Assembly (NCBI GenBank): GCA_964482725.1
Contig: CAYZYT010000007.1
Span: 19,875 to 83,874, forward strand
Reading direction: 5' to 3'
Origin: an uncultured bacterium
GTDB lineage: Bacteria; Omnitrophota; Omnitrophia; Omnitrophales; Aquincolibacteriaceae
Length of the DNA: 64,000 nt
Part shown: one piece after another, positions 1,935 to 61,300 of the stretch
Layout: each line of letters starts with the position of its first letter
Position numbering within the stretch: the first letter of the stretch is position 1
The notes under the pieces: model-generated
Database searches by the model: none
Told to the model about the DNA's origin: nothing
Seen by the model: the letters and a program-made list of their open reading frames with translations, nothing else
Position numbers and translations under genes: made by a program

Positions 1935-2022
1935 CGGACTACAGACTACAGACCACAGACTGGAGACTACCGCACAAAGCCCTCGATTTAAGTTTCAGTC
2001 TCGGGTCTCTCGTCTCTCGTCA
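1935..2022. repeat. GAGAC/GTCTC heptad palindromic element (REP-like), copy directly after stop codon
   Basis: gactacagac-tacagac-cacagac-tggagac ... cagtctc-gggtctc-tcgtctc-tcgtc; left arm of NNgagac heptads, right arm gtctcNN heptads; same family at 36516-36568 and 3x inside giant ORF. Confidence 0.6.
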
Positions 2023-3985: not shown

Positions 3986-4080
3986 GTATCCGCCACTAAA
4001 ACCGCGCTTGGAGTGTGGCGGGTTGTTTGCTAGACTGTCCCGTCTGCAATATTAACTTATCAATTTTCCCGGGAGATAAA

Positions 4081-6734: not shown

Positions 6735-6939
6735 TTTCCTAAACAAACTCGAGACATAAAATTTTAAAATCCGAAACGCGGGTTTAGTCTTTGAGTTTTG
6801 AACATTTGAATTTGTTTAGGGTTTAGTGTTTCGTGTTTAGGATTTGACGCAATAACGGCCCCGCCACCTGTGAAGTGGCGGAGCTTAGTACATAGCCATC
6901 TGGTTTCTAAGTACTATGTGCCATGCACCATGTACTGCT

Positions 6940-36514: not shown

Positions 36515-36515
36515 G

Positions 36516-36568
36516 GACTACAGACGAGAGACCGGAGACTCTAGTCTCTTGTCTCGGGTCTCAAGTCC
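36516..36568. repeat. GAGAC/GTCTC heptad palindromic element between sufC and sufD
   Basis: gactacagac-gagagac-cggagac tcta gtctc-ttgtctc-gggtctc-aagtc. Confidence 0.6.
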
Positions 36569-37861: not shown

Positions 37862-37910
37862 TCTTTGCTCGTTGTTCGTTGACCCGATTTTAAAATGATG
37901 AGGCCATAAA

Positions 37911-39149: not shown

Positions 39150-39183
39150 ATGTTGTTACGCCGTTTCTCCGATGGAACCGATC

Positions 39184-39222
39184 CAACCTGCCAGGTCAAC
39201 CTGCCAGGTCAACCTGCCAGGT
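39184..39222. repeat. 13-bp direct repeat x3 (caacctgccaggt)
   Basis: Three perfect tandem copies between sufS stop and sufU start; followed by tggatgg partially complementary to the unit. Confidence 0.5.
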
Positions 39223-39243
39223 TGGATGGGCCGAGGGGGTCCG

Positions 39244-39699
39244 ATGAGCGGGGATATCCGGGAGCTCTATCAGCAGATGATCATGGACCACAACAAGAAC
39301 CCGAGAAATTTCCGCGGGATGACGGACGCCGACCGGGGCGTGGAGGGCTACAATCCTTTGTGTGGTGACCACTTCAAGGTTTACTTGAAAATGGAAGGGG
39401 ACCGGATCAAAGATATCAGCTTTGACGGGTCAGGCTGTGCGATATCGAAGTCCTCGGCTTCGATGATGACTGCGGCCCTCAAAGGTAAAACGCGCGAGGA
39501 AGCCAAGGCTCTTTTTGAAGAAGTTCACAAGATGCTCTCTCGTGGGATCGGCGAGCCGTTCGATGCGGCGAAGGTCGGAAAGCTTGCGACGCTCGGGGGT
39601 GTGTGTGAATTCCCATCGCGCGTCAAATGCGCTTCGCTGGCGTGGCATGCTATGCTCGAAGCCCTGGAGCCGACGGGGAAGCAAATAACCACAGAATAG
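39244..39699 (+). CDS. sufU: SufU/IscU-like Fe-S scaffold / sulfur acceptor
   Basis: Conserved Cys in NPLCGDHFKV, GSGCAISKSSASMM, KCASLAWHA; ATG 39244 after gagggggt RBS. Confidence 0.8.
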   Translation: MSGDIRELYQQMIMDHNKNPRNFRGMTDADRGVEGYNPLCGDHFKVYLKMEGDRIKDISFDGSGCAISKSSASMMTAALKGKTREEAKALFEEVHKMLSRGIGEPFDAAKVGKLATLGGVCEFPSRVKCASLAWHAMLEALEPTGKQITTE

Positions 39700-39777
39700 A
39701 TAAAATAGGATGGCGGAAGGCGGATGGCGAAAAAACGGTTTTACTCCCTCCTCCATCCGTCATCCTGAAGAGAGCCT

Positions 39778-40397: not shown

Positions 40398-43300
40398 ATG
40401 AATTCAAGTAAGCCTATCAAGTCGTTCATTGCTGCGTTTACAGCCTTCACCTTTTTCTTCACCGGCCTGGGCATTTCACCCAACGCTTTTGCTTCGGGGG
40501 GTGCTTCTCTTGCCCCCGAAGTGTCTCTACCTTATCAGGTTAAGCTGGATCAAAATCTTCGTGTCACCATTCCTCAAGAATTAGGCAAACTCGAAAATTT
40601 TAAAATGGGCCAAGGGCCCGCCATCTTCCATATCCAGGACGCGCACGGTCATTACGAAGGCCAGCAGAAGATCCGCCAACTCCTTGGATTTCTGAGCAAG
40701 ACCTACGGGGTCAATACCGTGCTCGTGGAAGGAAGCGCTTTCCGGCTCAATTCCGAAAAGATCAACTTTTTCCCCAAAGATGTGAAGAAAACGCTTGCCG
40801 TGAATGAAGAGTTTACCCGTCGCGCGTGGGTTTCGGGGGCGGAGCTTTTTCTTTTAGACAGACTACAGACAAGAGACCAGAGACAAGAGACTAAAAATAA
40901 AAATTTAAAACCAGCTTTAGGTCTCCAGTCTCCAGTCTCCAGTCTCTGGTCTGGCGGCGAAGCCGCCGAGGCGCTCGGAATTGAGAATGCGGAGGCGTAT
41001 CGCTCAAACGGCCGGTCGTTCGTGAATGTCCTCACGGAAAAACAAAAGACGGAACAATTCCTCGCGGACATGAATATGCAGATCGAGCGTCTTGCGAGCC
41101 ACTCCCTTAATAAGGAGCTCCGCGACTTTCTCCGTCGGGTCGAAGGTTTCGAAAAGAATCAAGTCCCGCTTGATACCTGGCTTGCCAATCTGAAAACGGA
41201 AGCGGCGAAGAGCCTTGAGATCGATCTCGCGTCACCCGCTCACCAGCTTGATTGGCCGATGCTTGTGCGTATCTACAAGATCCAGGAGCTTTCTTCTAAG
41301 CTGGATCGAAAATCTTTCCCCAACGAGAGGGACGCATTCCTTAAAGCGATTCGGAGATTCCTACCTTCGAGGACTACAGACCCGAGACCCGAGACCCGAG
41401 ACCAAAACCAAGATAAAGTCTCCAGTCTCCAGTCTCCAGTCTCCAGTCAAATCGAAGCGTTGCTTCGTAACGATTCGATGAGTCAGCAGTTGCCGGATCC
41501 GGAGACAGGGTTGCTTTTTGAAGATATGGTCAAGCGCCTTCCGGAAAATTTCAATTATGAGGCGTTCCCGAACGTCCGAAATTTTATCGGAACACTCCTT
41601 CTTCGGAGCGAACTTAAAGCAGATCGCTTGATGAGGGAAGTCCAGAAGCTTTCGGAGACCCTCACCGCCAAATTGATCCGTAATAAGGAAGAACAAAAAC
41701 TCGTCGCGTTGCTCGCCGACCACCGACTGCTGCAGAAGCTCTTTGCGCTGGAGCTTACGCCGGCGGATTATGAAATAATCCGCGGGGAACGGCAAACGGG
41801 CAACGGTGAACGTGAAAACATAGAGCCGTCAGAAATCATTCGCCGATTTAGCGAATTCGTTCCCCGTTCCACGTTCCCCGTTTCCCGGGTGAAGTCCGTC
41901 CAATTCTCCCATGTTGCTGAATTGGATCATCTATTCGATGCAGCCATGAAGTTCTACTCCGGCGTCAAAGCCCGCGACGGAATGATGGAAACGAGAATCG
42001 AGGAACGCCTGAAAGAGACCGGCGCGACCAAGGTCGCCGTGATCACCGGCGGTTTCCACAGCCAGCCGATGCAGGATCACTTCATTAATAAAGGATATTC
42101 CTACGCGCTTATCACTCCCAAGCTCTCCGGGGCTGACGAAACGGGCCGCGACGGTTATCTCCAAGCCGCGCTTGCGAGCATTCTCCCGGCGCAAAACACG
42201 TACAAAAATCCCTTCATTTTTACGACGGCCAATCCTGCGGGTGACGGCGCGTCGCTCGCCGGCGTCAAAACGGCCGTGACGGATGTCCTGCAGAAACTAG
42301 TGGCTGGCGGTGCTCTTTCGAGTGCGGACGCCAGGGGCGTGACGCGTAAATTGGCGGGAAAAGCAGACCAGACCACAGACCAGAGACCACATACTGCAGC
42401 CAATGCTTTAAGTCTCCAGTCTCCAGTCTCCAGTCTCAAGTCCGACGTGGGCCGCTCCGAAGCGCGGATGGATCTTCGCGGCGATGCTGAAGAGATGCTG
42501 AAAAGTCTTAAGGTCAAGCCCGGCACGGACGGAGCTTCGGTGACATTTACTTTTGAAGGTGAGTTTCCGGACAAACCGAGCCCGATGTCCGTGACGTCGG
42601 CTGCGGAACTTTTTGATCTCTTTCAAAAGTTACAGGAATTCGGGATCCTGCCTTCTGATCCTGATGTGTTGATGCTCATCGGTCCCGGGGAAGTGGTGGA
42701 GGCGGAGGAGGGGCACACTATTACGATCAAGCCCGACCAGTGCATGGTGGTTTTTAAAGGAGGGACTGAGGCCACGGTCATCCAATGGCAGGATGCCTAT
42801 GGCATCAAGCAGGTCCTGCAAAAGATCATTTTGTGGTTGGGGGCTTCTTCTGGTCCCAAGGTCACTGTAAAACTTAGATCCGCCGCTGCCGCGCCGGCCA
42901 TTCCCGTCGCAGCACCCACCGTCGGAGCCAACAAACTTCAGCTCAAAAAAGAGGTTCCTTCGCTCAAGAACCTTTCGCCATTCAAAAATCTATTCGGAGG
43001 TCTGAAATCGCTCGGAGAAGCGCAGATCATTTCAGAAGCCCCCGTTGCAATTCGAGATGCCGCGAGGATTCTTGGGACTTTATCCCAGAAGTTTTCGTTC
43101 ACGGCTCTTGGGTTCGTCGAAGCTTCAGGGAATCTCGCCGATCCTTCCAAGGTTGCGTGGCTGCCGACCCTGGGGAATCCATCGGCAGGAGAATTGATGC
43201 AGAATCTGAGCGTTACTGCCTCCGGCGGGAACGCGGATGCTCTTTGTGACGTTGTCATCGCACCTTATAACGGAGAACGATTTGGTTCGCAATCCGGCAA

Positions 43301-46300
43301 CATGCTTTTTCTTCTCCCGCAGCGCTCCGAGGTCCGTCTGGAAAATGCCGGGCCGGTGAAGGATCTGGAGGCGATCAAAAAAGAGATCCGGTCAGCTTTG
43401 GAGGCAAATGATGCCGCCCACACGTTCAAACTTTTCGGGATCACGCTTCTCGCCGGGACTCACGTCGCGGATTTCGACGCGCGAGTGGCTCAAATGGATT
43501 CTTCGCATCTGGCCGCGTGGCTTGACGCTATTTTGCCGGTTCTTGAAAAGGTGGCGTCAAAGGTTGTGGTGCACGTTGGGTACGATGACCATGGCTCAGG
43601 GAACGCGGATGTAAAGCTTTGGATAGCTCTAATGAGTCTGAAAACCCAACTTAATAAAGCGAGGGCGGCCGAAGCGCCTCTGGCGCAAGGGACAAAAACC
43701 GCTCCAGCAGCTACCGCCGTACGCTCGGAAGCGCGGGCAAAGAAGGTTGGGGTTGTTGTTTCCGTGCGGATCGCGGTTGATCTTACGAAATATGACCGCA
43801 GAACCTTGGTCCGGGATGTTGCACTCCGGGAAATTGAAGAAAAAGTTGGCGCCAGGGCCGCGGATGATTATTTGTGGCGTGTGAGATTTTATTTCAACAA
43901 TGATGGCAGTAATGACGTTCGAGAGTTGAGGACTTTCGTTTCGTTGAACGCTTTGAAAGAATGGCTGAGACCATCAAGACGTACGAGATCAAATCTTACG
44001 ACGCTTGATATCGAAGGACTACCAAGCATCTATGCGCCTGCCGTCCGCTCTGAAGGGCGTGGGCCGCAGGAATGGATGCAAGAGGTCGACGCACTGACAG
44101 AACAGTTTTCTCAAAAATTTCAAGAGTCTCAGGCTTCCGGATCCGCGGAATTAGCGTCGCTGGAAGACCGGCTTGAGGATATCGAAAAAATTCAAGGGAG
44201 AATGAGAGTTCTTTCCCTGGTGATCCCGAGAGAGGTTGTGGCGATCGAGAGAAGAATGAAAGGCGAGCCTTCCAAAGAAGATTTCTCTGCGGGACTTGCG
44301 GCGCAGCGCCCATCGCTTCGCGATATGACTCGCGAAATGGAAGCGCTTTACGAAAAAGCGATTGCTCTCAACAGTGTCGAGACAGATTCCGTGAACCGGT
44401 TTCCGATCGCCCCTGTTTCCGTGGCCGGGCATTTCGTCTTCTTGGGTGGGCCCCTGGGGAGCTTGTATACGGCACTCAATAACGCCCGTGCGGAAGTGCG
44501 GACACAGGAAACCCATTACCGGAACACGACCGCGGAAGGGAAGATGCTCGAGATCGTTCAGAAAGCGGCGGGAAGTGAAATTCTTTTGGATGGAGCCAAT
44601 GTTGGGGATTGGAAACGGAATCCCGGCCTCAACGATGGCAACGACAGGATCGTTTTCGGGGACTTGCAGGTTGAAGATCATAATGTCACTGTTTTATTCG
44701 ATCCCTCAGCTATGGCGGAAGGCAAACAGCCTTGGCTTGTGTCTGTAGATGGGGATGACCACGCGGAAATGACGGCGCCGGTGGTGAATGCCGTTCAGGC
44801 TTTTATCAAACAGTCGATCGTGTCCGTGGAAACCTCTCAAGTCGCGGCTCCGGCCATCGAAAAAGAACAGCCGGTGGCGCCTGCCGTCGTGACCCCTGCG
44901 GTAGAAAAAATTGCAGCGGCTGTTTCTGCTGTGCCGGTGGCGCCGCGGGTTTCTGGGCGTATCAGTTTGCCGAAAGAAGTGAGACCTGTGGGCAGCCCGG
45001 TGGCGAGTATCAAGCTGGGCGCTGCGTTAAAACAATTTGAGGCCGAAAGCGCTGCTGCCGCAAATGATCCTAAAGCCGTAGAAACGCGGCGTCTTGCAGC
45101 GGAAGTTGCGGCAAAGGCAAAGAACGCGCAGATGCTAATCGGCAAAAGCGGCGGTGCTCAAAAACCGGCGCAAATACGCCGGGGCGGATTGATCGACAGA
45201 CTTCCCGGGTTGCCGGAGCGCGAACAGGCCCGGAATGTATGGCCGGCATTTGAAAATTTTTATACGAGACTTCTCGCCGAAGGTCAGGCGGAGGCATTAC
45301 TCAAGCTCCTGAAGGAAACGGAACAATATACGAAGACACGGACCCGCGCGACTTTTATCGCTGCGGGGATCGCGGCGGTTGTGATCTCGCTTTCGTGGCT
45401 TATCACGGGCGTCGGAGTGGTGACCATGATGGCGTCGTTTGTGTGCGGCGCCGGAGTTCTCGGAACGGTCTGGTTCTTCAATAATAATGTTCCCGATCTT
45501 TTGCGTTTGACCGGTAGTGGTGTGGTGGCGTTGGTGCCACTCTTCCAGAAGGCGGTTGACGACGTCAAAGCGAGGGAAGCCAAGCTCGCGGGCCGTGGGC
45601 CCCAGCCGGCAGCCAAGGGCACGGAAAAAGATGAAGAATCGGGTTCGTTCGGCAAACAGCTTTCAGATCTGGCCGCCCAGGCAACCGATGCGAAAGTTTG
45701 GGACAAAGGTGTGATCATCCCGAAACTTGCGGAAGTCATTGCCGGTGTTCCGGAGTTGACCGGTACGCAAATGCCGGTCCAAACGACGCTTGGGAAAACC
45801 CAGCCCGAAAAAACTCCGAATGGCATGATATCCAAGGGAACTCAAGGCCGTTCGGAGGTTAGGGCGAATACGGTTCCAGCCGCATCGGAAGAAGCCCTGC
45901 GGAATGAATTACAACAGATAGAAAGACAATTAGAACAGATCCAGGACCGGCAGGTTCAAGGGGAGGACGTCGGCTTGGCACGCGAAGATGTTCTCGCCCT
46001 TCAAGGACAGCGCGCAGCGATCCTGGAAAGTTTGGGGCTTACCACTCGTTCCGAAGTTCGGCTGTCGCCCGTTCAAGAACGGAAATTCCAGCAGGCGTTG
46101 CGGGATCTTCAGGCGAAGTGGTGGGACGGGAGCTTCAATGATCATGGCGCGGGACGCAAAATTGCTGCCGCCATCCTTCTTGGCGAGCTCAAAGATCCCC
46201 GGGCCGTTCCGGCATTGACGGAAGTTTTAACGGATGAATACGAAAAAGTACGTCGCGCCGCGGCCTCAGCGATCGAGTTGATCAATAATAATACTGAAGT

Positions 46301-49300
46301 GCTGAACAATGAACTCCGGAGGATCGAGCAGGCGCTGGGTCAGATCCAGGACCGGCAGGTTTTGGGTGAGGATATCGGCTGGGCACGAGAGGATGTTCTG
46401 GCGCTCGAAGGTCAGCGTGCCGTGATCCTAGAACAATTGGAACAGGCAAATCGTTCGGAAACGCGGAGAGGGCAAGAAGTTTTGCCCAAGATCGATCCTA
46501 CAAAAACGATCGCCTGGAGAGAACTCAAGGAACTCTCATCTCTGATGCAGAGGGAAGCAATATCCATGAGAGGTATGTTCGAGGCGGATCCGAATCGTTT
46601 CGATAAGTATTCCGTCCGGTTGGGCGATGATTTTCTTCTGGATTATTCGAAGAATCGGATCGACGGGCATGTTATGGCGGCGCTCATGAATCTTGCGGGG
46701 CAGACACGTTTGCAGGACGCGATCGAGTTGATGTTCACGGGCGCGAAGATCAACGAAACTGAAAACCGAGCGGTGCTCCATACCGCGCTCCGGGCTCCGG
46801 CAGATGCGGTGATCGAAGTGGACGGGATGAACGTTGTGCCGGACGTGCATCAAGTGCTTCAGCGGATGAAGAAATTCACGGACGATGTCCGTTCGGGCGA
46901 ATGGAAGAGTTACACCGGCAAGCGTATCAAGAATATCGTCAATATCGGAATCGGCGGTTCGGACCTCGGCCCGGTGATGGCCTACGAAGCGCTCAAGAGT
47001 TACAGCGACCGGGATCTGACGGTCCGTTTCATTTCAAACGTCGATGCCACGGACTTTGCGGAAAAGACCCGCGATCTCAAACCGGAAGAAACACTTTTCA
47101 TTATTGCCTCCAAGACGTTTACGACACAAGAGACCATGACGAATGCCGGAACGGCTAAGGCCTGGTTTCTGAAGAGCGGCGCGAAAGAGGAAGATGTCGC
47201 GAAGCATTTTGTGGCGGTTTCCACGGCAAAGGAGCTCGTCAAAAAATTCGGGATCGATACGGCGAATATGTTCGAGTTCTGGGACTGGGTCGGCGGTCGC
47301 TATTCCGTGTGGTCTGCGGTCGGTCTCCCGCTTATGTGCGCGATCGGTTATGAAAATTTCCGTGAGTTTCTGGACGGTGCTCATGAAATGGACCGTCATT
47401 TCCGGACCGCGCCTTTCAATCAAAATATTCCCGTGATCCTCGCGCTCCTCGGGATCTGGTACAACAATTTCTTTGGCGCCCAGTCGCAGGCGATCCTGCC
47501 TTACGATCAATACCTTAACCGTTTTGCGGCTTATTTCCAGCAGGGCGATATGGAGTCGAACGGAAAGAGTGCCGGCCGCGACGGCAAGCCCGTCACGCAT
47601 CAAACCGGTCCGATCCTTTGGGGCGAACCCGGGACGAACGGCCAGCACGCCTTCTATCAATTGATCCACCAGGGGACGAAATTGATCCCGGCCGACTTCA
47701 TCGGTTTCGCGAATTCCCTGAACCCGATCGGAGATCACCCCGAAAAACTCGCAGCCAATCTTTTTGCCCAGACCCAGGCGCTGGCGTTCGGTAAAACAGC
47801 TGACGAGGCGCGCGCGGATCTTGTTGCGGAAAATGTGAAAAAGAAAGCGAAGGGTGAAAAAGAATTAACTGCCGAAGAGATCGAAAGTCTCATTCCTTTC
47901 AAAGTATTCGAAGGCAATAAACCGACCAATACGATCCTTGTCAACCAACTGACGCCGCGGACGCTCGGGGTGCTTGTCGCGATGTATGAGCACAAGATCT
48001 TCGTGCAGGGCGTGATCTGGAATATCTACAGTTTTGATCAATGGGGGGTCGAACTTGGTAAAGCGCTGGCGAGCGGGATCCTGCCGCAGCTTGCTCCGAG
48101 CGCCGAAGTGAAAGGGCAAGATAGTTCAACCTCCGGGCTGATCGGTGTTTGGAAGAAAATGAGCGGTCGTTCTGAACTCCGTGGGATCATCGCTTTGCGT
48201 CATCGGCTGAAGAGCCTCGTGATGGTTTCTGCGGCGGCGGGGATGATGGGTTTTTCCGGATGCGCGACTCATAATGTCGGGACGCAGGCGCCCAGGTCCT
48301 ATCCGCCCGCCCCTAGTTATGATTATCGGCCCTTATATAAAAAGCCGATTTTGCCAAAGACCCAAGTTCCTAAATTTAATTTCAAACAGAATGCCAATCC
48401 GCCCGCTTTTCGGCCCCTAAGGCCCGTCGCCCCCATGCCGAAGATGCCCGCGGCGCGTTATCGTTCGGAGACGAGAGATTTAGAGCTGGAGAGACTTCTT
48501 GCAGCAAGAAAGGAAGTGCAGGATGTTGCGCGTGAGCAGCTTTCCAATCCCAAATTGATCGAAGCGCTGAAAAAACGAGCCGCACGGGAAGGAAAGGTTT
48601 TTCAGGTACCCTCCATGTCGCGCCGTTCTGAACTGCGAGGCAATGTTGAAACCCGGGATCCGGATCTTGAGAGATTGATCGCGGCAAGGAAGGCCGTGCA
48701 GGATACTGCGCGTGAGCAGCTTTCAAATCCAAAATTGATCGAAGCCTTGAAACAAAGAGCCCTTCGAAAAGGAATTGTTTTTTCGGAGCCTGTCTTTTCT
48801 GCAGTTCTGATCATCGGACTAGGGTTGGGCGCAGTCTCAGCGGCGCTCGCTCAGGCGAGTGTTACAAATGAAAACGCCGCCCTGACCCACCGGCCGAATT
48901 GGGCCGAATTCATGGCCACCTCGGATAGAAGTGATGTTGCGACGACGTTGGTGAAGTTTACCCGTGCCGGCGAAGAATGGGCTCGAAAACGCGGCAAGAC
49001 AGTGGACTATACGCCGGCATTTTTGGAAACGATGAAAGAAAAGATCAGAAAAGGGGAGATTCGCGACTCCCAGGAACTCTACAACCTGGTCATTCGCTGG
49101 GTCGAGCACAACGCCGTTCCCTCGGGCAAAGCCACTCGATCGACACGTACAGGTGCCGCAAGCAGCACGGAAGAGCGCAGCGAACTTCTCACTGCCCCTG
49201 AAAAAGGAACTGCAGAAAGTGCTGAGAGTGGCGGCGAAGCCAACACCGTGCGTGCCGAGATCCGGAATGTGGATGAATTTACGGGTAAGTTGCTCGAAGA

Positions 49301-52300
49301 GACCCAGCTTGGAGCAGAAATGCTTGCTTCCGAACTCAATGACGCGGTGTTGTTCGAGAACCTGGACACCGCTATTCAGCGCGCGATCGAACAAGTGCTC
49401 GGCGAAATGGATCAGAGCCCGGATCATGCCGCGGATTTTTACATAAGAGATCGCGATAATATTATTTCCAATCTCGAATCCCGCTCCGAGAATCGTCTGA
49501 TCGCAGGAGTGGCCGAGAAGGGAATGTCCTTTGAAGAGGTTCGCGAGGTTTCGCGCGCCCGCCGGAAAAAAGCGGCGTGGCAAGGAGGCATCCAATGGTG
49601 GCCGAAGGTCAGTGCCTTTCTGGGAGGCAATATTGCTTCCGCAGGGAATCTCGTTGCGCCATTGGCTGAAGAATCCGTCTATCAAGGTTCTTTGGACGTA
49701 CGTTCCGAGGCCCGTCTGTACAAAAAAGCCTGGGCCCATGTGACCGCGGTGACGTCTTCGGCCAAAGGGTTGAATCCGCTCTATGCGGTGATGACGGCGG
49801 CGGTGATCGGGGTTTCCGGATGTGCCAATTATCAAGGGGGGCTGTTGCACTCACTCCGGCATAATCCGCCGGCCAATATTCCCGATTATCGTAACCACTA
49901 TAGTCCTCCTCCCTATTATCGCGCTCCCTATGTTCCTAAGTCTCATTTTAAGCCGCCCGTTATTCCCATAAGACCGGTGCCCTCCGGGCCGAACCGTTCA
50001 GAGGTTCGAAAGTCTGTTGTTGGGAATAGCTCCAATCCGGTGGTTTCTCTCTGGGGCCTTGACACTTTTGACAGCCAACAGGGGTCGGTTCTGACCGCCA
50101 TTAATTCTGAATTTGTATTCCCGGGAGATTTCCAATTGCAAGCATCTCTTTTGGCGGATTATTCGGTGATTGAGGAGCTTCACCAGGGTTCCTTCAAGGC
50201 AGGGGATAAACAATATCATTTGGTGGTCGATGTCGGAGAGTCGATCGCAACTTTAAGACTTTCATTGGATGGAGAAATGAGGCTGACCGGCTGGAAATGG
50301 CTCAAAGATATCAGGTCCGAAGTTCAGGATTTGGCGCGTCACCCTTATGGGCTTTTAGCGGAAGTCAATGAAAGTCTGAGACGGCAGAATATCCCGGAGG
50401 TCAAACAGGAAACGACGCAAATTTACGGGCAGCAGCTCATCCATGGCGTCGAAAGCATCTTGGAAAAATTCCGTGGAAAACCCTTTACCGGCATTACCTA
50501 TCAACAAGTCGCCGGACGGTCGGAAGTGCGAACCGTAGGCTCCTCCGCGGAGGAATTGGACCGGGCGATCGATGCGGCCTACGTGAAAAAAAGACAGCTT
50601 GAATCGAAAGTCGGGGAAGCCAGGAGAAACTATGAGTCCTCGTACTGGCGGGAAACGGATGCCCGGCGCAGGGAAAATCTTCGCGATGGGGATCGGGATC
50701 TCGAGCAATTGAAAGATGAAACGGACAGCCTCCGTGTGACCCGCGACTCTCTGCAAAAAGAGCTGGAAACCGTCACGATCCAGATCCGGCGGTTGCTGGA
50801 CGAGAAGCATCCCGTGAAACGCTCGGAAGTGCGGGAAACGACGAAGCAGGCGCTGATCAGGGTCAATGCTGAAATGGAAGGGCTCGATCGATTGATCTCG
50901 GAGCTCACAAGAGCCCCGGAGTCGGCGGACAAGGACGAAAGGCTTGAAGCGCTGAACGCAAGTTATGACGAGCTTGAAGAAAAACGGCAGCACCTCGCGC
51001 GGCTAGGAGTGATCAAAAAAGCCTGGGCCCATGTGTCAGCCGTGACTTCTGCAGCCAAGGGACTCAATCCTCTCTACACGGTCGGGCTGGCAATTTTTGA
51101 ACAATGGTTATGGCATCCCCGAAGCCTCACGCTCGCTCAGGCAGCTCATGTCGAGCAAGCCGCATCGATGGAAGCGCGTTTGGATACCCTCCGGGCATTG
51201 GGCGCGAACCCGGGCCTGGGCTATCAGCGATTTGTTTATCATTTGATGCGCGCCGAGTTATCGCCTTCCGAGTGGCGCCGTTTTGACCGCGCTTTGATGT
51301 GGGAAGTTGATGCTGAGAAAAAGGTAGCGTCTGTACGTTCGGAACTGAGGGGTGGGAAAAACATTGCGGGAATGTTGAAACAAAAAGGCCTGGATGACAA
51401 CGAGATCCGTCTTTTGGCGGCGGCCGTTCTAGTCAGTGGGGGGAGAGGGAACCTCAGTCAGGCTGGGGTCATATTAAAGAATACGAATACTCTTCCGGAG
51501 GTGACTCCGGAGATGCTGGTGGCTTTCCAGACGCTCATGTCCCGTCCGGAAGATATGCGGGCGGTATGGCTGAAGCTTGATGACCAGCTCCGATTTTCAC
51601 ATGACATCGAGGCTCTTTATTTTCAAGACGAAAATCTCGGCGCTGCACACCGTTTAATGCATAAGGCACAGGTTCTTATCGATGTTTTTCGGGCCCTCCG
51701 CGGAGAGATTTCGTCCATGGGCAATCGTTCTGAAATCAGAGCCGAAGTTGATCCCGAGACGGCGGCGAAGATCGCGGATCGCTGGAAAAAGATCCGCTAC
51801 ATGGAAACGGACCCCGAGGGCGTGAAGCTCAAGGCCGAAGCCGAAGAAAAGGGCGAAGGTTTCCTGAATAACGCCCAGGCGACGATCCGTAAAGTGGCGG
51901 CTCAGATCAAGCTCGATCCGAAGATCCTTGAAAAGCTTTTGCAGTTCACCAAAGTCATTCGTGTCAAGATCCCGCTCACCCTCGATGAGGGCGGGGAGAC
52001 GCAATATATTGACGGATTTCGGATCGGCCACGCGCCCTATCGCGGGCCCTACAAAGGCGGCATCCGTTTTGCGATCGGCGTTGTGGAAAATATGATCAAG
52101 GCCCTCGCGACAGAAATGAGCGTCAAGAACGCTATTGCCGGGCTTCCTTACGGTGGCGGCAAAGGCGGCGTTGCGATCGATCCGAAGTATTTGTCGATCA
52201 AAGAACTTGCGCGTCTGACCCGCGGCTATGTGGAGCAATGCCTGAAGCAGGATCCGAACGCGTTCGGGGCGCTCCTGGATGTTCCGGCCGGAGATATCGG

Positions 52301-55300
52301 AACGACTTCCCGTGAGATGGGCTGGTTCGCAGATGAATTCCTGCGGATCAAGGGTTCGGATCTTTTTGATACGGATGGATACCGGGACTTCCTCGCAAAA
52401 GGGGATGAAAAGGGAAAGCCTTACGACGAAACCGGAATGCCGCGCCTTCAATTCTATATGAAGGAATACTACGGCAAACGGCATATCGACATGAGCGAAG
52501 GATCTCTCATCGCGACCGTGACGGCCAAACCCGAAGGAAAGGGCGGTGCTGTGGGGCGTACGCCGGCGACCGGCCTTGGTCTTTATTATGTGACGCGGGA
52601 TGCGCTGAAGATCTACGGGGATCGCCTCGGGATCGGTGCGAGTGTCGCGCAGCAAAGAATCGCCGTCGAAGCGTACGGGAATGTCGGAAGTTACGCCGCG
52701 CGGAGCTTTTTTGATAACGGCGCCAAGGTCATGGCGATCAAAGAATTTATCGGGAGGCCGGTTGCAGTTGTCGCCACAACGGATCGCGGTATGGATCTGA
52801 ACAAACTCGACAAGCATCTGGCCGAAAAGAACGCGGACGGCACATCGAAGAAGAACACGGTCCTGACTTATGTGGAAGCGCATCCTGAGGACGCGCGCCT
52901 GGCTACGATCGAGGGGTTCTGGTCAAGCGACGTTACGGTCCTCGCCCTTTGCGCCAAAGAGAAAACGGTCAATAAAGAGATCGCCGCGCTTATCAAGGCA
53001 AAGATCATTTCGGAAGGGGCCAACGGGCCGCTTGAGAACGACGGATCCGAACAGATCCTTCTGGATAAAGGCGCGATCATTCTTCCGGACGTTGCCACCA
53101 ACGACGGCGGCGTGGCATTCTCCTCCCTCGAGTGGCGGGCGAATAATATCGGCGAATCATGGCCGGAGGTCGCGGGGAACGGTCTGATGGAAGACAAAGT
53201 CGTAAGTGCCTTCTATGATATTTCCAGGGTCTCCGAATCCCAGAAGATCACGCTCCGTGAAGCGGCCTACCAGATCGCGATCAGCAAGATCGTGGACGCG
53301 ATGCTCGCGGCGGATCCCGAACTGGGGAATCTTTTTGATGAAACACATCCCGCTTATGTGATGGATGCCGGGGCGAAGCGCTGGCGGCCGGAGACCTGGC
53401 AGGAGCTTCGTCAGATCGATTCGCGGAAGGCGAAGGCCGCTCTGATCGATCGGGCCGACGAGGTCATGAATAAAAAGATCGATGAGATCGTTTCGGAAGC
53501 GCTCCGTGACCTTCCCTCAAAACGGGGCAGTGTGATCCTGATCGGCGGCCCGAGGGCTGCCGGGAAACCCATGCTGGGTGCGAACATGTTGGCGAAACTT
53601 CGTGCCCGGGGGCTCAAGGCCAGCATTCTTGATATGGATAATCAAAGGATGGATGATCTGACCAACGTTCTCCGGGGAAAGAAAGTTCCTGTTCTTCTCG
53701 AGGACGGGTCGCGGGACGGGGATCTCCAACTCGGCACAGATGAAATATTGATCGTGAATGGCTATTACGCTTTGGGCGACGAGATCCTCCGGAGGATCCA
53801 TGCCATCCAAGGAAAAGCATTCCCCCTCATTGCTTACAGCTCCCCGGACATTCTTCTTTCTAATAACTGGGCGCTGACGGCTTACGATGTCCGGCTGATG
53901 CGCGATACTCTGAGCGGCCTTGTGGTGGGGGAAGAAATGAGTGTCCAGGAAGTGATCCGCCGGTGGCAGCTCCAGCGCGTTTCGGAAACGGAAGCTGTCT
54001 TTGCGACCTGGAAGAACGCCAAGCGTGCGATCAACACCTATTTACCTTACGAATTACCTTTCCTGAAATCCCTGGTGGGGCCGCTCATCAAGATCGCGAT
54101 CGCCCAGGAATCCCGGGAACCCGGGGATGACGGGTATACGCTGAATGTCCTGCGTCATCTCGACAGCCTCTTGCGCAATGTCGAAGGCTGGGACGTTTCC
54201 CTGTTGGAAGGTCATCATGATTCCGTATTGTGGGAATACGTCCAGCGCTATGTACCGAATGGCACGACCGGGGTTCGTTCCGAATTGCGCGGCGGGGCCG
54301 ACCTGACCCGCGAAGCGAAGCTCGAGCAGTATTCCTGGAAGTTCCTCGGCCATGTTTGGGGCGTGACATTGTCGGGATTGGCTTTCGCGGCCGGAATATT
54401 TTACGCGGCCGAAGCTTTGGGATACCTCTCGGTGGCGGGACAAATTTTCTCCGAATTGTGGGCCGCTGGATGGGTTTTGGGTTATTCCATGATCATGGCC
54501 CTCGTCGGTGGGTTCGGCGTTTCTTATTTTATCCGGTTGTATCAAGAAACAAAATCCGGGGCGCTCGCGGAACTGGCACAGGAAAGACTTGCGGCGGATC
54601 TGGAAAGTGTGAAGGACCGGATTACGAAGGAACTTTCCCGCTATCCTTCGATCCCGCAGCGTTTCACAGCAGGATTTCAGGCTGTCCGTAATGACTTATC
54701 TCAAGCGGATCAGGTCATCAGCTATCTCGAAGCCTTGGTGGGGGATCTTACGACCTACGGAGAAAAACATCCTTCGGACGCAAAGGACGCCTGGGCCACC
54801 TGTGATGTCCTCGACAGGATCGCCGAAGAACTTTCTTTTTATCCGGATTCTTCGCGCTCGGAAATCCGGTCGAAGGAAGACTTTGCAGCCTTCGTAGATA
54901 AGTTTTTGAAACGTTCGGAAATCGTCAAAGAACTTGATGGTGTGGAACTTACGCTTCGTGCCATCAAAGAAATGGCGCAGGAAGCCATTCCGGACGACAA
55001 GATGACTCGTGTTGTGAGCGATGTGATGCTCCGGGCGGCAAAACAGGATGGATTGAAGCAGCCGCTTATTCATAAGGGTTTGAAAAATGCCTATCCCAGG
55101 AACTCCCAGCGCGGAAAACGGGTCATGGCAGAGACCCTTGCCGAAGCCTTTTCGGTCGCTCTTTCAGGCAATGATCCGTACGATGTCCGGGAAGCTCTGA
55201 CGGTTTTCCGGCGGGCGCTCACGGCCTATTCGAAGGAAACGGGCAGTTTTTCAAGTGGACAACAAGAAGCGGCAAAGACCTTGGCTGCGCAGCTGGGGAT

Positions 55301-58300
55301 CAAGTGGGACCGGATCCGAAGCCATGGGCTTTTGGCTTTTGATATGCAGAAAACACTTGTCGAGCGCAAAGAGATCCTGACCGATGGGTTGAGGGATGGT
55401 CTTATATGGTTGCTCTCGGAAGGGGTTCCTGTCGTAGTCATTTCGGCCAATTCGCGCGAAGAGATCTGGCAACAACTTATGGAGCCGATTCTCAAAGAAC
55501 TCCGCGCCCGGAATAAACTCTCTGTCATCGAAAATATGCTTGTCTATGCCAATAGCGGGACGTCGAAGTACTGGGTCGACAGTATGGGCGAGCGGCACTT
55601 GGATGTTGGGTTCAGTAAACAGTTCATGATCGGGCAAGAGGTCGAGCGGGCGATTCAGGAGGGGCTTAAAGATCTAGCCGTGAGGGGATTTTTTATCCCC
55701 CCAGCGGAGTGGCCTGCTTTCCGGGATCTTTATGAGAGGGATAAAGTTAAAGATGGCCTGGAAACGGAATTTCAGTTCCCCTGGATGGGAAAAAATATTT
55801 CACGAAGTGCTTATGAACCTTCCATCGTCCAGCGTTTAAAAAATGAAAAGATCGTCCAGGCCCCTTATATCATCCGCCGTGGACTTTTGGAAGGGGACGG
55901 GGATCAGCGCGGGACCGCGCTTGCGATCCGGCAGTTCTTGCCCGGCCAGCGGGAAAAAGCATGGCATTCCTTGGAGGAATTGTTACCGGCACGTTTGGGC
56001 GCTTTGGCGTCACAGTTCGCACTGCGCGGGGGAGGGGTATCGACGATCGATCTCTCCAATAAAAACGCGAATAAGGCCATGGCTTTTCGCGATGCCGTTG
56101 GATTTTTTCAGAAAAAGGGTCGCCGGGTGGACTTCCATGATGTTGTCTACCACGGGGATGAGGTTTGGAGGGGTTCCGAGGGAACCGCGGCGAAGAACCG
56201 CGGGAACGACATGATCATGCTCGAAAATGATTTTGACGGAGATCCGGGATACAAAAAATTTCAAGTGGTAGCTTTTAATCCGAATCCTCCCGAGGGGCTT
56301 TCTGCCGAGTACCAGACCCGCACCTCCTACATCGGGGGGGAGCAGCGCGGTGTGGAACTTTATCTTGGGTTGCTGAAGCAATCGGTTGAAAACCTCCGCG
56401 AGAGGAGCGGCGAAGCGGTTCCCGTACGCTCCGAGGTAAGGGGATTTGTGGCGCTCGCGGAAAATGCGCTCAAGAAGCGTTGGATCAGTGAAGCGGCTCT
56501 TGCCAATATCCGTTCATGGTCCGGGCCGGAATATGCCCGTGTGCATGGCCAGTTGGATGAAGAATTAAAAGCGGCGGGACAGGATCCGAAGGCTTGGTCG
56601 AAGATAAACGACGCGTGGTACACGAAGGTTGCGGTTGGTACGGCCGGAATGCGCGGAACCCTGGGGCTTGGGACGAACCGGATCAGTGAATACACCCTCG
56701 GTTCGCTTATGATGGCCCATGCGCTTTCCGTGAACGATCCCGCTTATACGCAGATCATTGAAGAAAATTATCCGGAGTTTCGTGCGAAGGATCTCCATCG
56801 CGCGGTCGTGATCGGCGGGGATTCTCGCTATGGTTCCTATGATGCTCAAACGAAAAAACCGGGCCGCCACATCAAACTCGAAGCGCTTATCAATGTGGCG
56901 TTGGGTATCAAAGCCTATGTGTTCAAGAGTCCCGCCTCTACGCCCCAGTTGGCATGGGCCGTTCATGAACTCGACGTTGAGCCCACGGACCTGCTTGTTT
57001 CGGGCTCCATGAATACTGCCAGCCATAATCCGCTTACCGATAACGGGAATAAACCCTACAAGATCGACGGGTCGCAGTCTACCGGGGTATTTTCGGAGCT
57101 TATGGCGAAAAACCTTTCGAATGCCGGCGTTACCGCTCTGAATGCCCTCACCTATGATGGCTTGAGCGTTCTGGAGAATGTGGACGAGGCTTTTGCGCGC
57201 GCCGTGGCCAAGGGCGATATCCGCTGGGTCGGCGGGACGGACGATGATTCCTATGCGAAGGATGCGTACCATGCGGATGAGCTCTTCGTTCAGCGCGAGC
57301 TTCAGGAAGCTATCCATACGATCAACGGGATTTTTGATAACGCAAAGATCGATCTTGGAAATTCCAGGATCGTGATTTCGCCGCTTTTTGGCGTGTCACG
57401 GCACATCCTGAAAAAGATCATTAAAGCTCGCGGCCTGAGCGAAGACCAGATTGTTTGGGTCGAGGATGAACCCAATCCCGATTTCCCAGGAGTGAAAGGC
57501 GGCAAGCCGAATCCCGAGGAACCGAAGGCGCGCCTGGCCGCTCTCCGCAAAGCCGTAGAAGTGAATGCCGACCTTGTGCTTTGGACCGATCCGGACGCCG
57601 ATCGTCCCGCGGTCGCTGCCAAGAAAGATCTGACAAAGAAAGCTGTTTCGACTGACGATTACGTTTCATTTAACGGCAACCAGCAGCTGGCGATCCTGAT
57701 CGATTATCTTGTCCGCGAGCTGAAGTCGCTTGCGGCGGGGCACTCCCTGGCCGATGACGAAACGCGGACTCATCTGGCGCGCCAGGCCGCCGTGATCATG
57801 TCCAATATAGGGAAAACGTTCGCAGCATTCAGTCTTGTTTCGGCCGACCTTCCGAAGATGATCGCGCGAAATGCCGGGATGGAAGTCGTGGGAACACTGG
57901 TCGGCTTCAAATATATCGGCGACCAGATCGAGCTTCGTTCCAAAATGATCCAGAAGCTTGCCGGGATCACCGAGACCGAGTGGCAGGGTCTGAGCAATTC
58001 ACGGAAGCTCGAATTGGGACTTCAGTATTCCCAGGCCTTTATCTTCGGCGGTGAGGAGTCGCTTGGCGCTCTTTCAAGCGACGGGCCGCATGACAAGGAT
58101 GCGCTCGCGGGAGTGATGTGGTTTGTTGAGATCATGGGCCGTCTCCGGAAGGACGGACTTACGTTGAATGATCGCCTGACGGAAATTTATAAGACGTACA
58201 GCTATTTCTCCGAGCGCTTTCCGATGCTCGAAAAAGGCAAGACTTATGCCGGGGTTGATCTTAGCGAAGACGAGGCCACTCAGGTCATTAAGGCCGAGAA

Positions 58301-61300
58301 GGGCCCGAGTATCATGAATTTCTTTCGTGCGACGCCGCCCCGTGCCATCGCGGGCAAGAAAGTCATTGCGATCCTCGATATGCTGGCTCAGACCGCAAAG
58401 GATGTAGACGGGAATCTTCTCTTTGATGCGGATCATCCAGGCGGTTTAGTGACGCCTCAAACAGCCGGGATACCGGAATCATTTCGGAGTGCATTGTCCC
58501 AGATCCAAGTACCGGCGACGATTCATCCGGCAAACAAACATCTTTTGCGGGGGATCTATTCTTTCCGGCACAAGCCGGTTCCGGGTTCGTCGGGTGCAGG
58601 GGAAGCGCTTCCCAGGGAAGCTTTCATCCGCCTACTGCTTGAGGACGGCTCGATCGTGACGCCGCGGCCTTCCGGGACGGAGCCGAAGCTGAAATTTTAT
58701 ATTCTGGGGCGCGGTCTTTATGAAAATAAAGCTGCGGTGGATGCCTGGGTCGAAGCCGCGTCAAAAGAGCTCGATGCGATCGGCGACGGGGTCGCCAAGC
58801 AGCGTTTTCCTGAAAGATTTACGGCGCGGGCAGAAACGAGCTCAACCCTGAGCCTGAAACGCTCAGGACTTCGCGGGAAATTCGACGCACTCATGGAGAT
58901 GAATATTTCGTCGCTTGACGATACGCGGGATCCCACCATGAAGCAACTTTGGAATGCCGTGCGGAAAGCCATGAATCGGGATGAAAGTGTCCGGCGGAAT
59001 ATTGCGGATGCGAACACGGCTAACGATAGCGTCAGTGCCGCCAAGGCAACGGAGCAGATCTCTCGGGCCATGGACATGGCCTTGGACGCGCAGAAGGCGG
59101 CAGCGGTTCAGGAAGGAAAACGCGTTTTCGGGGATAGGAGCACTGTTGCGAGTATGGCCGCAGTGGTAGCGATCGCACCTTTTGTGATGTCGCCGGTTCT
59201 TGCCGTGATGGTCGAGATCTTGGGAATTTACTCTTTGGTGGACTTGCTCTCGACCGGTTCCCTCAGGTGGAAGCGGAAAGGGTTAAGCTTGAACGATGTC
59301 GAATACTATAAACCTTTGATCCGGCTCGCGTTCGAACGGACGGAGAGCCAGATCATCGCTGAAGCTACGGAGAAGGCTGCGCGTAGCGAGATTCGGGACG
59401 GCGCTGCGGAACCGGCGAAAACCACCGTTTCTTCTGAACCGGCCGTCCAACCTGCTGAAAAAGTGGTAGCGCCGGTGGTCGAAAAAACTCCGGAAGAGAA
59501 GAAGCCCGCGGTTGTTGCGGCGCCTGTTGCGGCGAGCGAACAAAATGCTGTTTCAGGCAATTTACCCTACCTCGTAGCCGCAATCACCGGATTGACTATC
59601 CTTGGGGCGCTTGCCGCCGTCGCCTTGTATGCACTTGAAGGCGAATCGACCCATGACAAGTTCGTGAAGATTTCTGTGGCGGTAGTTTGTGCGTTGGTCG
59701 GTGCAGGTGGGATTTTTGCGGTGCTATTCGGGGTTGCTTCCTTGGATTTTATGAGGAGCTCTCGTGGAAATTCTTCTAGGAGTCCGCTCGAGCTTGCAGA
59801 GAGTGAATCCCTACGATTGATCAAGAAAGTGGAATCCAAGATCCGGCCTGAACAAAATCGGCTTGAGGCTATCACAAAGCATGCGATGACAGAAGCGGCC
59901 GCCGCAGGAGATAAAAAGAAGCAGCCGGTCGTGGAATCGAGCGAAACGCTGCAGTTGCGTGCCAAGGTTGAGGCCCAGGAAGAAGTAGCAAGACAGATGA
60001 GGTCAATCGCAGAGGAATACAAACAGTTTGAAATTTTGAGCTCGCGGGCCGTCAAAAAGCAGCAGCCTCAGATCGATGCTGTGACTCAGAAGATCCGGGC
60101 GCTCTATGAGCCGTGGGCTGCCGAAGAGGCCAAGAAGGTGAGTGCCGCTGCTGCCAAGCGATCCGAAATCCGTCAAACCTCTTCATCGGATCCGGAAGCG
60201 ATCCAGGCCTTGGTTGAAAGGATCGGGGATCTTGAAAGCCGTTATGAAAAACTGAAAAGCCAGAGCGGGCATGCGGCCCAGCGCGAAGTCCGTCGAGTTA
60301 AAAGAGAGCTGGATCAGGCGAGGGCAAGTCTTGAACGGACGGAATCATCCGTTGGTCGCTCCGAGGTTCGCCAGGATGATGAAAAAGAGCTTCGGGAACT
60401 GCGTTCCCGATGGGATGAGCTTATGCAGAGCAAGGTGCATACCTGGAGAGTTGCGGCAGAGCTTAGTCAGGTCCAGGCAAAGATCTCCGCGATCCTGGAT
60501 TCTCAAAAGGCCAAAGTCAAGCAGGTCATCGATCTTGAGATCGTTCCGGAGTTGATGAAAAGAATCTCGGACATGGAAATGGCGGTTCGAAAACAAAGGC
60601 TGGATGAATCGACGACGCTTGAAGTGATAAGTCTCTTGGGGACACGGGTCGAAAGGGTCTATGCGGCGATAGCTCCCGTGGCCGTTTCCCGTGGTTTGGA
60701 TCCCTTGGGCATGTTGCGGTTCTTTTATGGGATGGCCCCGACCCACGAAGATCCGAATAAGAAATTCATGGATATTTACAAGGCGTTTTTTATGGGAGAT
60801 CGAGAAAAGATCAATGCTCTGAGCTTTCAAATCGTCGGCTTACCCATCAGGGATATGGATACAGCCCGTGAGATTTTTGGAGAGAAATTCTCGCCGTGGA
60901 TCGCTGCCTTGCTCGAGTTGCCCAAGGACATTTTTGAGCGCAAGTTCGTTCAACAGACGAGTGAAGGATCTAAGGAGCTCGACGGCCGGATCGTCGCCCT
61001 GGCAAATTTTCTGCAGCACATGACCGCCTTTTATCAGGGGAGCCACCGGGAGGCGCTTCTTGCGGAAGCTGGGATGCTTTTGACCGCATGGGACGGCTGG
61101 GCCAATCCCTCCAGGGTCATTCCCGTGGCGCCTCAGACACTTCAGGTTGGGGGGCTTCAGGTCATCCAACATTCCTATTACAGATCGCCGGGCGTTACCA
61201 TAGACAACAAGCCGGTCTCTCAGGCAAATAAGCGGGCGGAGATTCGCGCAGAAGTGCTCGCCGCAACCACTTCTCTTCCGTTGAGCCGTGAAGTTGTGGT

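Follow-up and report, generated by a model that had tools for sequence, protein, structure and literature searches.

The Omnitrophota are a widespread phylum of uncultured, ultra-small and host-dependent bacteria, and giant open reading frames (ORFs) are their signature oddity. Such genes raise the question of whether the product works as one very long chain or is cut into pieces, and if so, where. Here, this question is asked of a 64,000 nucleotide (nt) stretch of DNA from a member of the family Aquincolibacteriaceae (order Omnitrophales; GenBank assembly GCA_964482725.1, contig CAYZYT010000007.1, positions 19,875 to 83,874 of the forward strand), which we refer to as the window. One ORF in the window encodes a protein of 7,591 amino acids (aa) with a signal peptide, a conserved N-terminal module, about 26 variable modules and a conserved C-terminal module. 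A short peptide, R-[S/A]-E-x-R, recurs between these modules. Comparison with related proteins strongly supports a role of this peptide as the delimiter of complete, self-contained modules. Our favoured explanation, which we hold with some confidence, is that the giant is a bacterial polyprotein and that RSExR marks its processing sites, possibly cut by the protein's own N-terminal domain. Cleavage of Omnitrophota giants has been suspected before by West-Roberts et al. 2023 (10.1101/2023.11.21.568195), who state that the cleavage points are unknown and that their absence prevented structural analysis, and Seymour et al. 2023 call the roles of these giants 'poorly understood'.

A regular expression scan of the translation finds 24 in-frame copies of RSE.R and four of RAE.R. 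From the residue composition of the protein 0.17 copies of RSE.R would be expected, and the maximum in 2,000 residue shuffles was 3, so the original prediction was right that the recurrence is not a matter of chance; RSE.R is in fact the most enriched pattern of four to five residues in the whole protein. The 23 positions that had been listed are all real to within 1–10 nt (the one given as 48452 is actually 48462). The proposed form R-S-E-[V/I/L/A/T]-R fits 21 of them, the others being RSEGR (44046) and RAEIR (61233), and five further copies had been missed (RSENR at 49482 and 61692, RAEVR at 44487, RAEIR at 49251 and RAEAR at 62178). Across the whole window, RSE.R occurs 24 times in the frame of the giant and 1–5 times in every other frame, and no copy is in frame with any other long ORF.

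Because the codons vary synonymously and the copies keep to the frame of the ORF, the signal is essentially a peptide and not a DNA word, with selection acting mainly at the protein level. The Glu codons at position 3 (GAA and GAG) follow the background usage of the gene (p = 0.92), and so do the Arg codons at position 5, where all six are in use (p = 0.82). Position 2 uses the Ser codons TCC, TCG, TCT, TCA and AGC (p = 0.08 against background). The codon for the first Arg is biased, being CGY at 23 of the 28 sites in the window (p = 7e-4), at 43 of 46 sites in relatives (loci L088–L094) and thus at 66 of 74 over eight loci. Ser is encoded by TCN at 23 of 24 sites in the window and at all 38 in the relatives (61 of 62 Ser-containing sites overall); elsewhere in the window, an Arg that precedes a Ser encoded by TCN uses CGY in just 56% of cases. 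Avoidance of GATC was considered as the reason for the bias at the first codon and rejected, as GATC is over-represented in the window (784 occurrences in 1–64000 against about 245 expected by base composition). Internal translation starts after the motif were rejected as well: Met follows one of the 28 copies, and there is no consistent Shine-Dalgarno-like sequence.

The clearest view of what the motif brackets comes from phosphoglucose isomerase (PGI). The PGI module matches its Pfam family over profile positions 1–486 of 486 (758 bits) and therefore represents a complete enzyme, 62–67% identical to the listed PGIs, most of which are free-standing; the nearest PGIs are Planctomycetes–Verrucomicrobia–Chlamydiae (PVC)/Omnitrophota-like, at 62–68% identity. 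RSETR stands 5 residues ahead of the natural N-terminus of the enzyme and RSELR 2 residues past its natural C-terminus, which is the position where free-standing PGIs end. Other slices from motif to motif resemble whole proteins, too. The domains named in the original prediction could be verified for PGI, for a dehydrogenase of the Glu/Leu/Phe/Val type (GDH) and for a phosphoglucomutase/phosphomannomutase (PGM/PMM; the module is called PGM below), while the kinase, in the remainder of the GDH module up to aa 4626, and the haloacid dehalogenase-like (HAD) domain turned out to be weak matches only (P-loop kinase-like, APS_kinase, E = 0.04; HAD, E = 0.05). Pfam also identifies a HEAT repeat (HEAT_2). 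Two Pro-rich pieces of about 98 aa each have a textbook lipoprotein signal peptide at their start, immediately behind the motif. The protein has just 10 Cys in 7,591 residues, and 2 of these are the lipobox cysteines. Among 151 giants of the family, five of the six internal lipobox-type signal peptides begin 16–35 aa past a delimiter, two of them in this protein. The delimiters themselves lie in surroundings that are predicted to be disordered, both in residues 657–685 before the first site, where the predicted local distance difference test (pLDDT) is below 50, and in residues 1–52 of the model of the C-terminal module. A duplication that had been proposed to start after the copies at 48462 and 48624 is visible in the sequence by eye, like other short duplications, and lies below the blastp threshold of E < 1e-3, at which no internal repeats were found in the giant. 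For aa 2580–3800 a word-indexed search returned no homologues, which is not evidence of absence. The ORF thus holds several complete proteins (PGI, GDH, PGM and lipoprotein precursors), as a polyprotein does, and has the recurrent short junction motif, conserved in relatives, that goes with one.

Beyond the original prediction, the motif proved to be shared by a large family of proteins whose N- and C-terminal modules are conserved. With aa 1–1108 as the query, an exhaustive phmmer search yielded 4,385 homologues of the N-terminal module among representative proteins at E ≤ 1e-3 (473 at E ≤ 1e-30), most of which are giants labelled Omnitrophota. The best 150 matches are mostly 2,000–7,800 aa long and align at their own N-termini; the members listed range from about 300 to 7,800 aa. 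Like the giant, the homologues start with a signal peptide or signal anchor, and those that carry a source name come from Candidatus Omnitrophica/Omnitrophota (NCBI). De novo pattern counting in each of the long members listed gave R[S/A/T/Q/P]E.R as the top pattern in most; among 114 long members its enrichment has p < 1e-6 in 65 and is weaker in most others. The dominant form differs between members (designated by P numbers, as loci are by L numbers): RSE.R in P0122 (25 copies) and P0123 (26 copies), RTELR in P0148 (14 copies), RSELR in P0163 (12 copies), RSESR in P0135 (9 copies), and RAE.R in P0128, P0151 and P0188 (14–17 copies). Across 771 RSE.R sites of the family, position 4 is L, V, A or M, small residues are favoured at -1, -2 and +1, and there is no conservation further out. 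In 1,149 R.E.R sites position 2 is Ser in 773 and Ala in 184, and Pro, Thr or Gln forms dominate in some members; the invariant residues are R1, E3 and R5. At the first delimiter, directly after the N-terminal module, R686 and R690 align in 34–36 of 39 family members. About half of the family proteins share the C-terminal module of about 300 aa, ending in …[S/A/M]A, and in its cluster 26 of 28 members have a delimiter 272–421 aa from the C-terminus. Its model (pLDDT 65) gives only generic Rossmann-like structural matches. In loci L086 (10001–17241) and L087 (8871–16111) a shorter family member is encoded by two ORFs, of 1,178 and 1,248 aa, which lie in different frames and share 43 nt. The N-terminal module is in the first, and the end of the second, …AAILHAA, resembles that of the family's C-terminal modules. 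Two independent metagenomes show exactly this split, so the frameshift may be genuine or programmed.

Outside of the N-terminal module the giants of this family are highly divergent, and the blocks that they share are delimiter-bounded modules. Homologous proteins that lack the motif at equivalent boundaries would have spoken against a delimiter role; what is found is the opposite. In the metagenomic fragment P0001, a PGI that is 67% identical to that of the window has RSEVR 5 aa before it and RSEMR 2 aa after it, between flanking modules that are unrelated to those of the window giant; its C-terminal end resembles the C-terminal module of the family. The GDH module is 75% identical to P0126 across aa 3777–4625, from delimiter to delimiter. 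The PGM module is 81% identical to P0125 in an alignment that starts at the motif in both proteins, at different absolute positions, and alignments with P0126 and P0127 also begin at the motif in both partners. When 151 family proteins were compared all against all, 83 of the 653 alignments outside the N-terminal region began exactly at R1, and 131 started within ±3 residues of a motif, compared to 12 for random positions. Delimiter-bounded modules are therefore the units that are shuffled in the evolution of these proteins. Of the cassette-delimiting recognition or processing signal that had been proposed, the delimiting part is thus well founded, while the processing part is what we infer from it.

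Some relatives use another peptide in the same places. A scan of genomes with the PGI module yielded 80 loci, of which only L001 (SBBM01000005.1, 1–13572, a metagenome-assembled genome labelled Planctomycetales; the 5' end of the gene lies outside the locus) carries PGI in a frame that stays free of stops over the full 13.5 kb of the locus. RSExR is absent from this frame; instead it contains seven copies of SSSP[V/I], compared to 0.025 expected. Between them lie a GGDEF protein, PGI, membrane proteins and a module with a Sec-type signal peptide directly after the delimiter. In a pairwise alignment, SSSPV of L001 lines up with the RSETR just ahead of PGI in the window. Five of the seven tags share the GC-rich codons TCC AGC TC(G/T) CCG within an AT-rich gene, so in this case conservation extends to the DNA level. 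Within the family itself, P0191 and P0255 have no RxExR and contain four copies each of A-x-S-L-G, the first just after the N-terminal module and the last before the C-terminal module. P0195 (7,384 aa) has two sites only, one after the N-terminal module and one 324 aa before the C-terminus. As read from these sequences, AxSLG and SSSP[V/I] suggest a concerted replacement of all sites within a lineage, the pattern expected for one trans-acting reader whose specificity has changed. Another PGI locus, L085 (1–2192; GCA_026387535.1, Candidatus Omnitrophica), has an unannotated upstream segment that continues in frame into PGI, the junction reading …PNSPIAPV…; the gene call in the database begins at an internal Met and hides the fusion.

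If there is such a reader, the N-terminal module is a candidate. Pfam gives no significant match for this module in the window protein, and there is no match among PDB sequences. The Pfam family matched, weakly, by the largest number of members is PF04187 ('Tiki superfamily, ChaN'), with 2 of 16 and a best E of 0.0023; the module of the window itself does not match it. An AlphaFold2 model built with 15 homologues has a pLDDT of 74 and a predicted template modelling score of 0.67; confidence is low in loops at the repeat-encoded inserts and over the last 30 residues ahead of the first delimiter. The proteins listed with this model are HopBA1, two EreA-like 'succinoglycan biosynthesis' proteins, a TraB family protein, RRSP (the MARTX Ras/Rap1 endopeptidase), ChaN and EreC, all of which we take to be members of the Tiki/TraB/EreA/ChaN superfamily. 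A fold of this type is predicted for the module on this basis. Conserved residues are H78, Q80, H83, E111, E149, E196, R291, E405, E414, R526 and T550-GGFH554, of which H78, H83, E111 and H554 are conserved in 114 members. The segments …AH(83)G…, VLVE(111)G and TGGFH(554) resemble the GxxH / E / GxxH signature of the superfamily. Compared with the Tiki/TraB/PrgY/GumN/EreA/ChaN/RRSP superfamily, the module is far bigger, at about 600 aa with long insertions of helices, and stays below Pfam thresholds. The superfamily includes site-specific endopeptidases such as Tiki and RRSP, and also esterases and haem binders, and for this reason the module is a candidate protease only.

In the explanation that we favour, the gene would be translated into a precursor with a Sec signal peptide, a Tiki/TraB-like module, a variable train of cargo and the conserved C-terminal module of about 300 aa. 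The cargo would consist of complete PGI, GDH and PGM enzymes, small lipoprotein precursors, membrane proteins and coiled coils, joined by flexible linkers that carry R-[S/A]-E-[L/V/A/M/I/T]-R. A site-specific endopeptidase would read this motif and cut the precursor into its modules, either after R5 or before R1. The freed modules would then act as ordinary proteins: enzymes could oligomerise, and lipoprotein and other signal sequences would become N-terminal. The likeliest protease, going by the structural model, might be the family's own N-terminal Tiki/TraB-like domain, which would be made first and held at the membrane by its signal anchor; we propose this part tentatively. An unlinked cellular protease could do the cutting instead.

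Several observations weigh against this proposal. Its main difficulty is topology. With a signal peptide ahead of it, the N-terminal module is probably exported, whereas PGI, GDH and PGM normally function in the cytoplasm, and some of the sites may be out of reach for a protease confined to one face of the membrane; the many hydrophobic segments in the hydropathy profile of the giant raise the same question. Members with few or no RxExR have kept the candidate catalytic residues of the N-terminal module just as fully as the others, with no correlated loss. No conserved protease gene is found beside the giants, either in the window or in the loci of relatives, where the neighbours are housekeeping genes that differ between lineages. 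Finally, the codon bias at the first two positions of the motif and the near fixation of the L001 tag at the DNA level mean that nucleotide-level constraint keeps some weight, and a constraint of this kind or a copy-paste origin of the sites may have contributed.

The same observations can be read without any cleavage. The junction peptide could be a linear motif that organises or exports the intact giant by binding to a partner, such as a chaperone, a secretion factor or the protein's own HEAT modules. A short motif in flexible linkers with alternating R/E/R side chains is typical of docking peptides, HEAT repeats are present in the giant and in its relatives, and the conserved caps at both ends could act on an intact chain. 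The lipoprotein and Sec signal peptides right after the motif, however, make full sense only as N-termini, and GDH and PGI, as is generally known, are normally oligomers, which is hard to square with permanent tethering in a chain of 7,591 aa. AxSLG, with its different chemistry in the same positions, is explained by a shift in protease specificity no less well than by a new docking partner. Overall we judge docking to be unlikely, and a modification of the Ser to be far less credible still. Phosphorylation by a basophilic kinase or O-glycosylation could in principle regulate each module, as Ser is the most frequent residue at position 2 in the R.E.R counts given above and the Arg upstream of it presumably resembles basophilic kinase motifs. 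Yet Ala takes this place in 184 sites and dominates in P0128, P0151 and P0188, Pro, Thr or Gln dominate in other members, and it is R1, E3 and R5 that are invariant, not Ser. Because of the Ala-dominated members, the hydroxyl group is dispensable, and modification is unlikely as the conserved function.

A quite improbable alternative places the signal in the nucleic acid, the 15 nt being a footprint or substrate of cassette shuffling (by microhomology, site-specific recombination or a signal at the RNA level) and the peptide a by-product. This would account for homology blocks among giants that break exactly at the motif, for the preference for CGY and TCN, and for the shared GC-rich codons of five SSSP[V/I] tags in L001. 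It fits less well with positions 3, 4 and 5, where codon choice varies, synonymously or not, as it does in the background of the gene; no more than about 9 of the 15 nt are constant, each of them required by the encoded amino acid. The motif is confined to the reading frame of the ORF, and the peptide persists in relatives whose N-terminal modules are just 30–40% identical. Ala, Pro and Thr at position 2 are one step away from TCN, as selection on the peptide predicts.

Processing at the motif can be compared to several known systems. In function the giant is like viral polyproteins and MARTX toxins, and it belongs to neither group. Viral polyproteins (of picorna-, flavi- and potyviruses) likewise have several complete proteins per ORF, a junction motif of 4–7 residues with small residues after the site, and motifs that depend on the lineage. 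In flaviviruses, signal sequences inside the polyprotein contribute to defining the products on either side of the membrane. The giant differs in that it is encoded on a cellular chromosome, carries housekeeping enzymes, and has a protease that is a candidate and a cleavage that is proposed. MARTX toxins share the conserved caps, the variable, shuffled cargo between them and, as a candidate here, a built-in protease; in MARTX toxins an internal cysteine protease domain sets the effector modules free. They differ in their sites (Leu, and not RxExR), in their cargo, which in the giant consists of metabolic enzymes and lipoproteins and not of known toxins, and in secretion, where the giant has a Sec signal in place of type I secretion; Pfam finds no RTX repeat family, cysteine protease domain (CPD) or any other protease domain in the window protein. 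An Arg at the putative P1 of repeated sites between functional units is also seen in kexin/furin substrates and in RgpA/Kgp/HagA of Porphyromonas. The analogy to dibasic protease sites made in the original prediction (R-x-(K/R)-R for kexin/furin) does not hold, as the spacing is R-x-E-x-R with an invariant Glu at P3 that is foreign to kexin/furin sites, P2 is hydrophobic and not basic, and in the furin register there is no Arg at P4. No subtilisin or gingipain domain is found in the giant by Pfam.

The closest likeness is to the Omnitrophota giants described before (Archaeovorin-type proteins and 'multi-enzyme metabolic clusters'). Giants with embedded PGI, PGM/PMM and HEAT domains have been reported by West-Roberts et al. 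2023, Nielsen & Lui 2026 (10.64898/2026.06.07.730766) and Seymour et al. 2023. The window protein shares with them the huge single ORF that begins with a signal peptide, the lack of a recognised Pfam domain in the N-terminal region, the HEAT repeats, PGI and PGM/PMM embedded in the chain, numerous transmembrane segments and homologues named Candidatus Omnitrophica/Omnitrophota. At 7,591 aa it is far smaller than the proteins of 30,000 aa or more in the West-Roberts set and also smaller than those of 10,000 aa or more in the catalogue of Nielsen & Lui. A text search of Nielsen & Lui 2026 found no mention of cleavage, a motif or a polyprotein. In the literature outside of subscription papers, to which the search was confined, no description of the junction motif, the Tiki-like N-terminal module or the C-terminal module was found; a query for the motif returned only unrelated alginate-lyase motifs, and one for polyproteins in Planctomycetes or Omnitrophota nothing relevant.

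The features of the giant ORF are collected in Table 1.

Table 1. Delimiters, modules and signal sequences of the giant ORF (positions in the window; aa numbers of the encoded protein).
Feature	Position	Strand	Remarks
Giant ORF	40398..63173	+	7,591 aa
Sec-type signal peptide or signal anchor	40398..40496	+	from sequence reading; hydropathy peak at aa 7-27
Conserved N-terminal module, aa 1-685	40398..42452	+	predicted Tiki/TraB/EreA/ChaN-like core
Delimiter 1, RSEAR, aa 686	42453..42467	+	directly after N-terminal module
Delimiter RSEVR, aa 976	43323..43337	+	
Delimiter RSEAR, aa 1109	43722..43736	+	
Delimiter RSEGR, aa 1217	44046..44060	+	
Variant RAEVR, aa 1364	44487..44501	+	
Delimiter RSEVR, aa 1818	45849..45863	+	
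Delimiter RSEVR, aa 1884	46047..46061	+	opens HEAT-repeat module; P0125 and P0127 alignments begin 1-2 residues away in both partners
Delimiter RSETR, aa 2019	46452..46466	+	before PGI; aligns with SSSPV of L001 and RSEVR of P0001
Full-length PGI domain, aa 2082-2582	46641..48143	+	Pfam PF00342; module aa 2019-2590
Delimiter RSELR, aa 2591	48168..48182	+	after PGI
Internal lipoprotein signal peptide	48183..48263	+	right after RSELR aa 2591
Delimiter RSETR, aa 2689	48462..48476	+	
Delimiter RSELR, aa 2743	48624..48638	+	next ~45 residues duplicate the preceding module
Variant RAEIR, aa 2952	49251..49265	+	functional-looking; P0126 alignment begins exactly here in both proteins
RSENR, aa 3029	49482..49496	+	
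Delimiter RSEAR, aa 3102	49701..49715	+	
Second internal lipoprotein signal peptide	49716..49823	+	
Delimiter RSEVR, aa 3200	49995..50009	+	
Delimiter RSEVR, aa 3374	50517..50531	+	
Delimiter RSEVR, aa 3475	50820..50834	+	P0126 alignment begins 1 residue off
Delimiter RSELR, aa 3647	51336..51350	+	
Delimiter RSEIR, aa 3777	51726..51740	+	opens GDH module
Glu/Leu/Phe/Val dehydrogenase domains, aa 3852-4304	51951..53309	+	Pfam PF02812, PF00208
Delimiter RSELR, aa 4627	54276..54290	+	opens module of hydrophobic segments (aa 4649-4715)
Delimiter RSEIR, aa 4820	54855..54869	+	module with weak HAD-like match (E = 0.05)
Delimiter RSEVR, aa 5344	56427..56441	+	opens PGM module
Phosphoglucomutase/phosphomannomutase domains I-IV, aa 5463-6105	56784..58712	+	Pfam PF02878, PF02879, PF02880, PF00408
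Delimiter RSEIR, aa 6329	59382..59396	+	
Delimiter RSEIR, aa 6588	60159..60173	+	
Delimiter RSEVR, aa 6654	60357..60371	+	P0126 alignment begins 1 residue off
RAEIR, aa 6946	61233..61247	+	
RSENR, aa 7099	61692..61706	+	
RAEAR, aa 7261	62178..62192	+	last delimiter, ahead of C-terminal module
Conserved C-terminal module, aa 7261-7591	62178..63170	+	ends in …AIAKSA; alpha/beta core

The gene starts with an ATG that has a ribosome-binding site, behind a 300-nt AT-rich spacer that is preceded by the suf operon. Rfam and tRNA scans found no RNA genes (neither rRNA nor tRNA) in the window. An alpha-amylase-family protein (2094–3569) and a glycogen phosphorylase (4015–6579) are encoded by ordinary separate genes, and the enzymes for the next two steps towards glycolysis, PGM (56427–59381) and PGI (46452–48167), are present in the window only as modules of the giant; these are the steps that would link the separately encoded glycogen phosphorylase to glycolysis. 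An ORF of 593 aa at 150–1931 (+) combines a match to an IF-2 domain (PF11987, aa 259–368) with a FecR domain (aa 501–590), which is an unusual pairing. Tandem repeats with a period of 7 and 3–5 copies are common between the genes of the window (1937–2021, 6814–6845, 36507–36567, 37856–37882 and 39708–39729), and the gap between sufC and sufD contains a (GAGACTA)n/(CTCTAGT)n pair that is self-complementary. Repeats of the same period are also found inside the giant ORF, in pairs within its first 2 kb (40867–40946, 41378–41448, 41858–41887 and 42369–42442), where the inserts they encode fall in low-confidence loops of the model of the N-terminal module. Phase variation of the giant gene is possible, as the gain or loss of one repeat unit would shift its frame. 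A second delimiter, 'LQSPVSS', which occurs three times in module 1, was considered and rejected because it stems from such a DNA heptamer tandem repeat, (GTCTCCA)n, and is not a peptide motif. A perfect 13-nt tandem repeat, CAACCTGCCAGGT, is present in three copies at 39184–39222, at the start of an ORF (39172–39699) downstream of sufS.

What follows for the phylum depends on how far the interpretation is taken. The junction motif bears directly on the open question of whether these giants are one chain or are cut, and where, and RSExR is the first concrete candidate for the place where Omnitrophota giants are cut. A map of the motif predicts the mature products, allows the modules to be folded and annotated separately, and names a candidate protease domain. 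If cleavage is true, the giant would represent a cellular, non-viral polyprotein strategy for housekeeping enzymes, with a vocabulary of sites that is lineage-specific and evolving. More speculatively, Omnitrophota giant ORFs might in general be the equivalents of operons, translated as one chain from which a built-in or co-evolving Tiki-like endopeptidase, reading lineage-specific delimiters (RSExR, RAExR, AxSLG or SSSP[V/I]), frees enzymes, lipoproteins and membrane proteins. Should this possibility hold, these would be true bacterial polyproteins of central metabolism, and the motif would be a ready cleavage map for the giants of the phylum.

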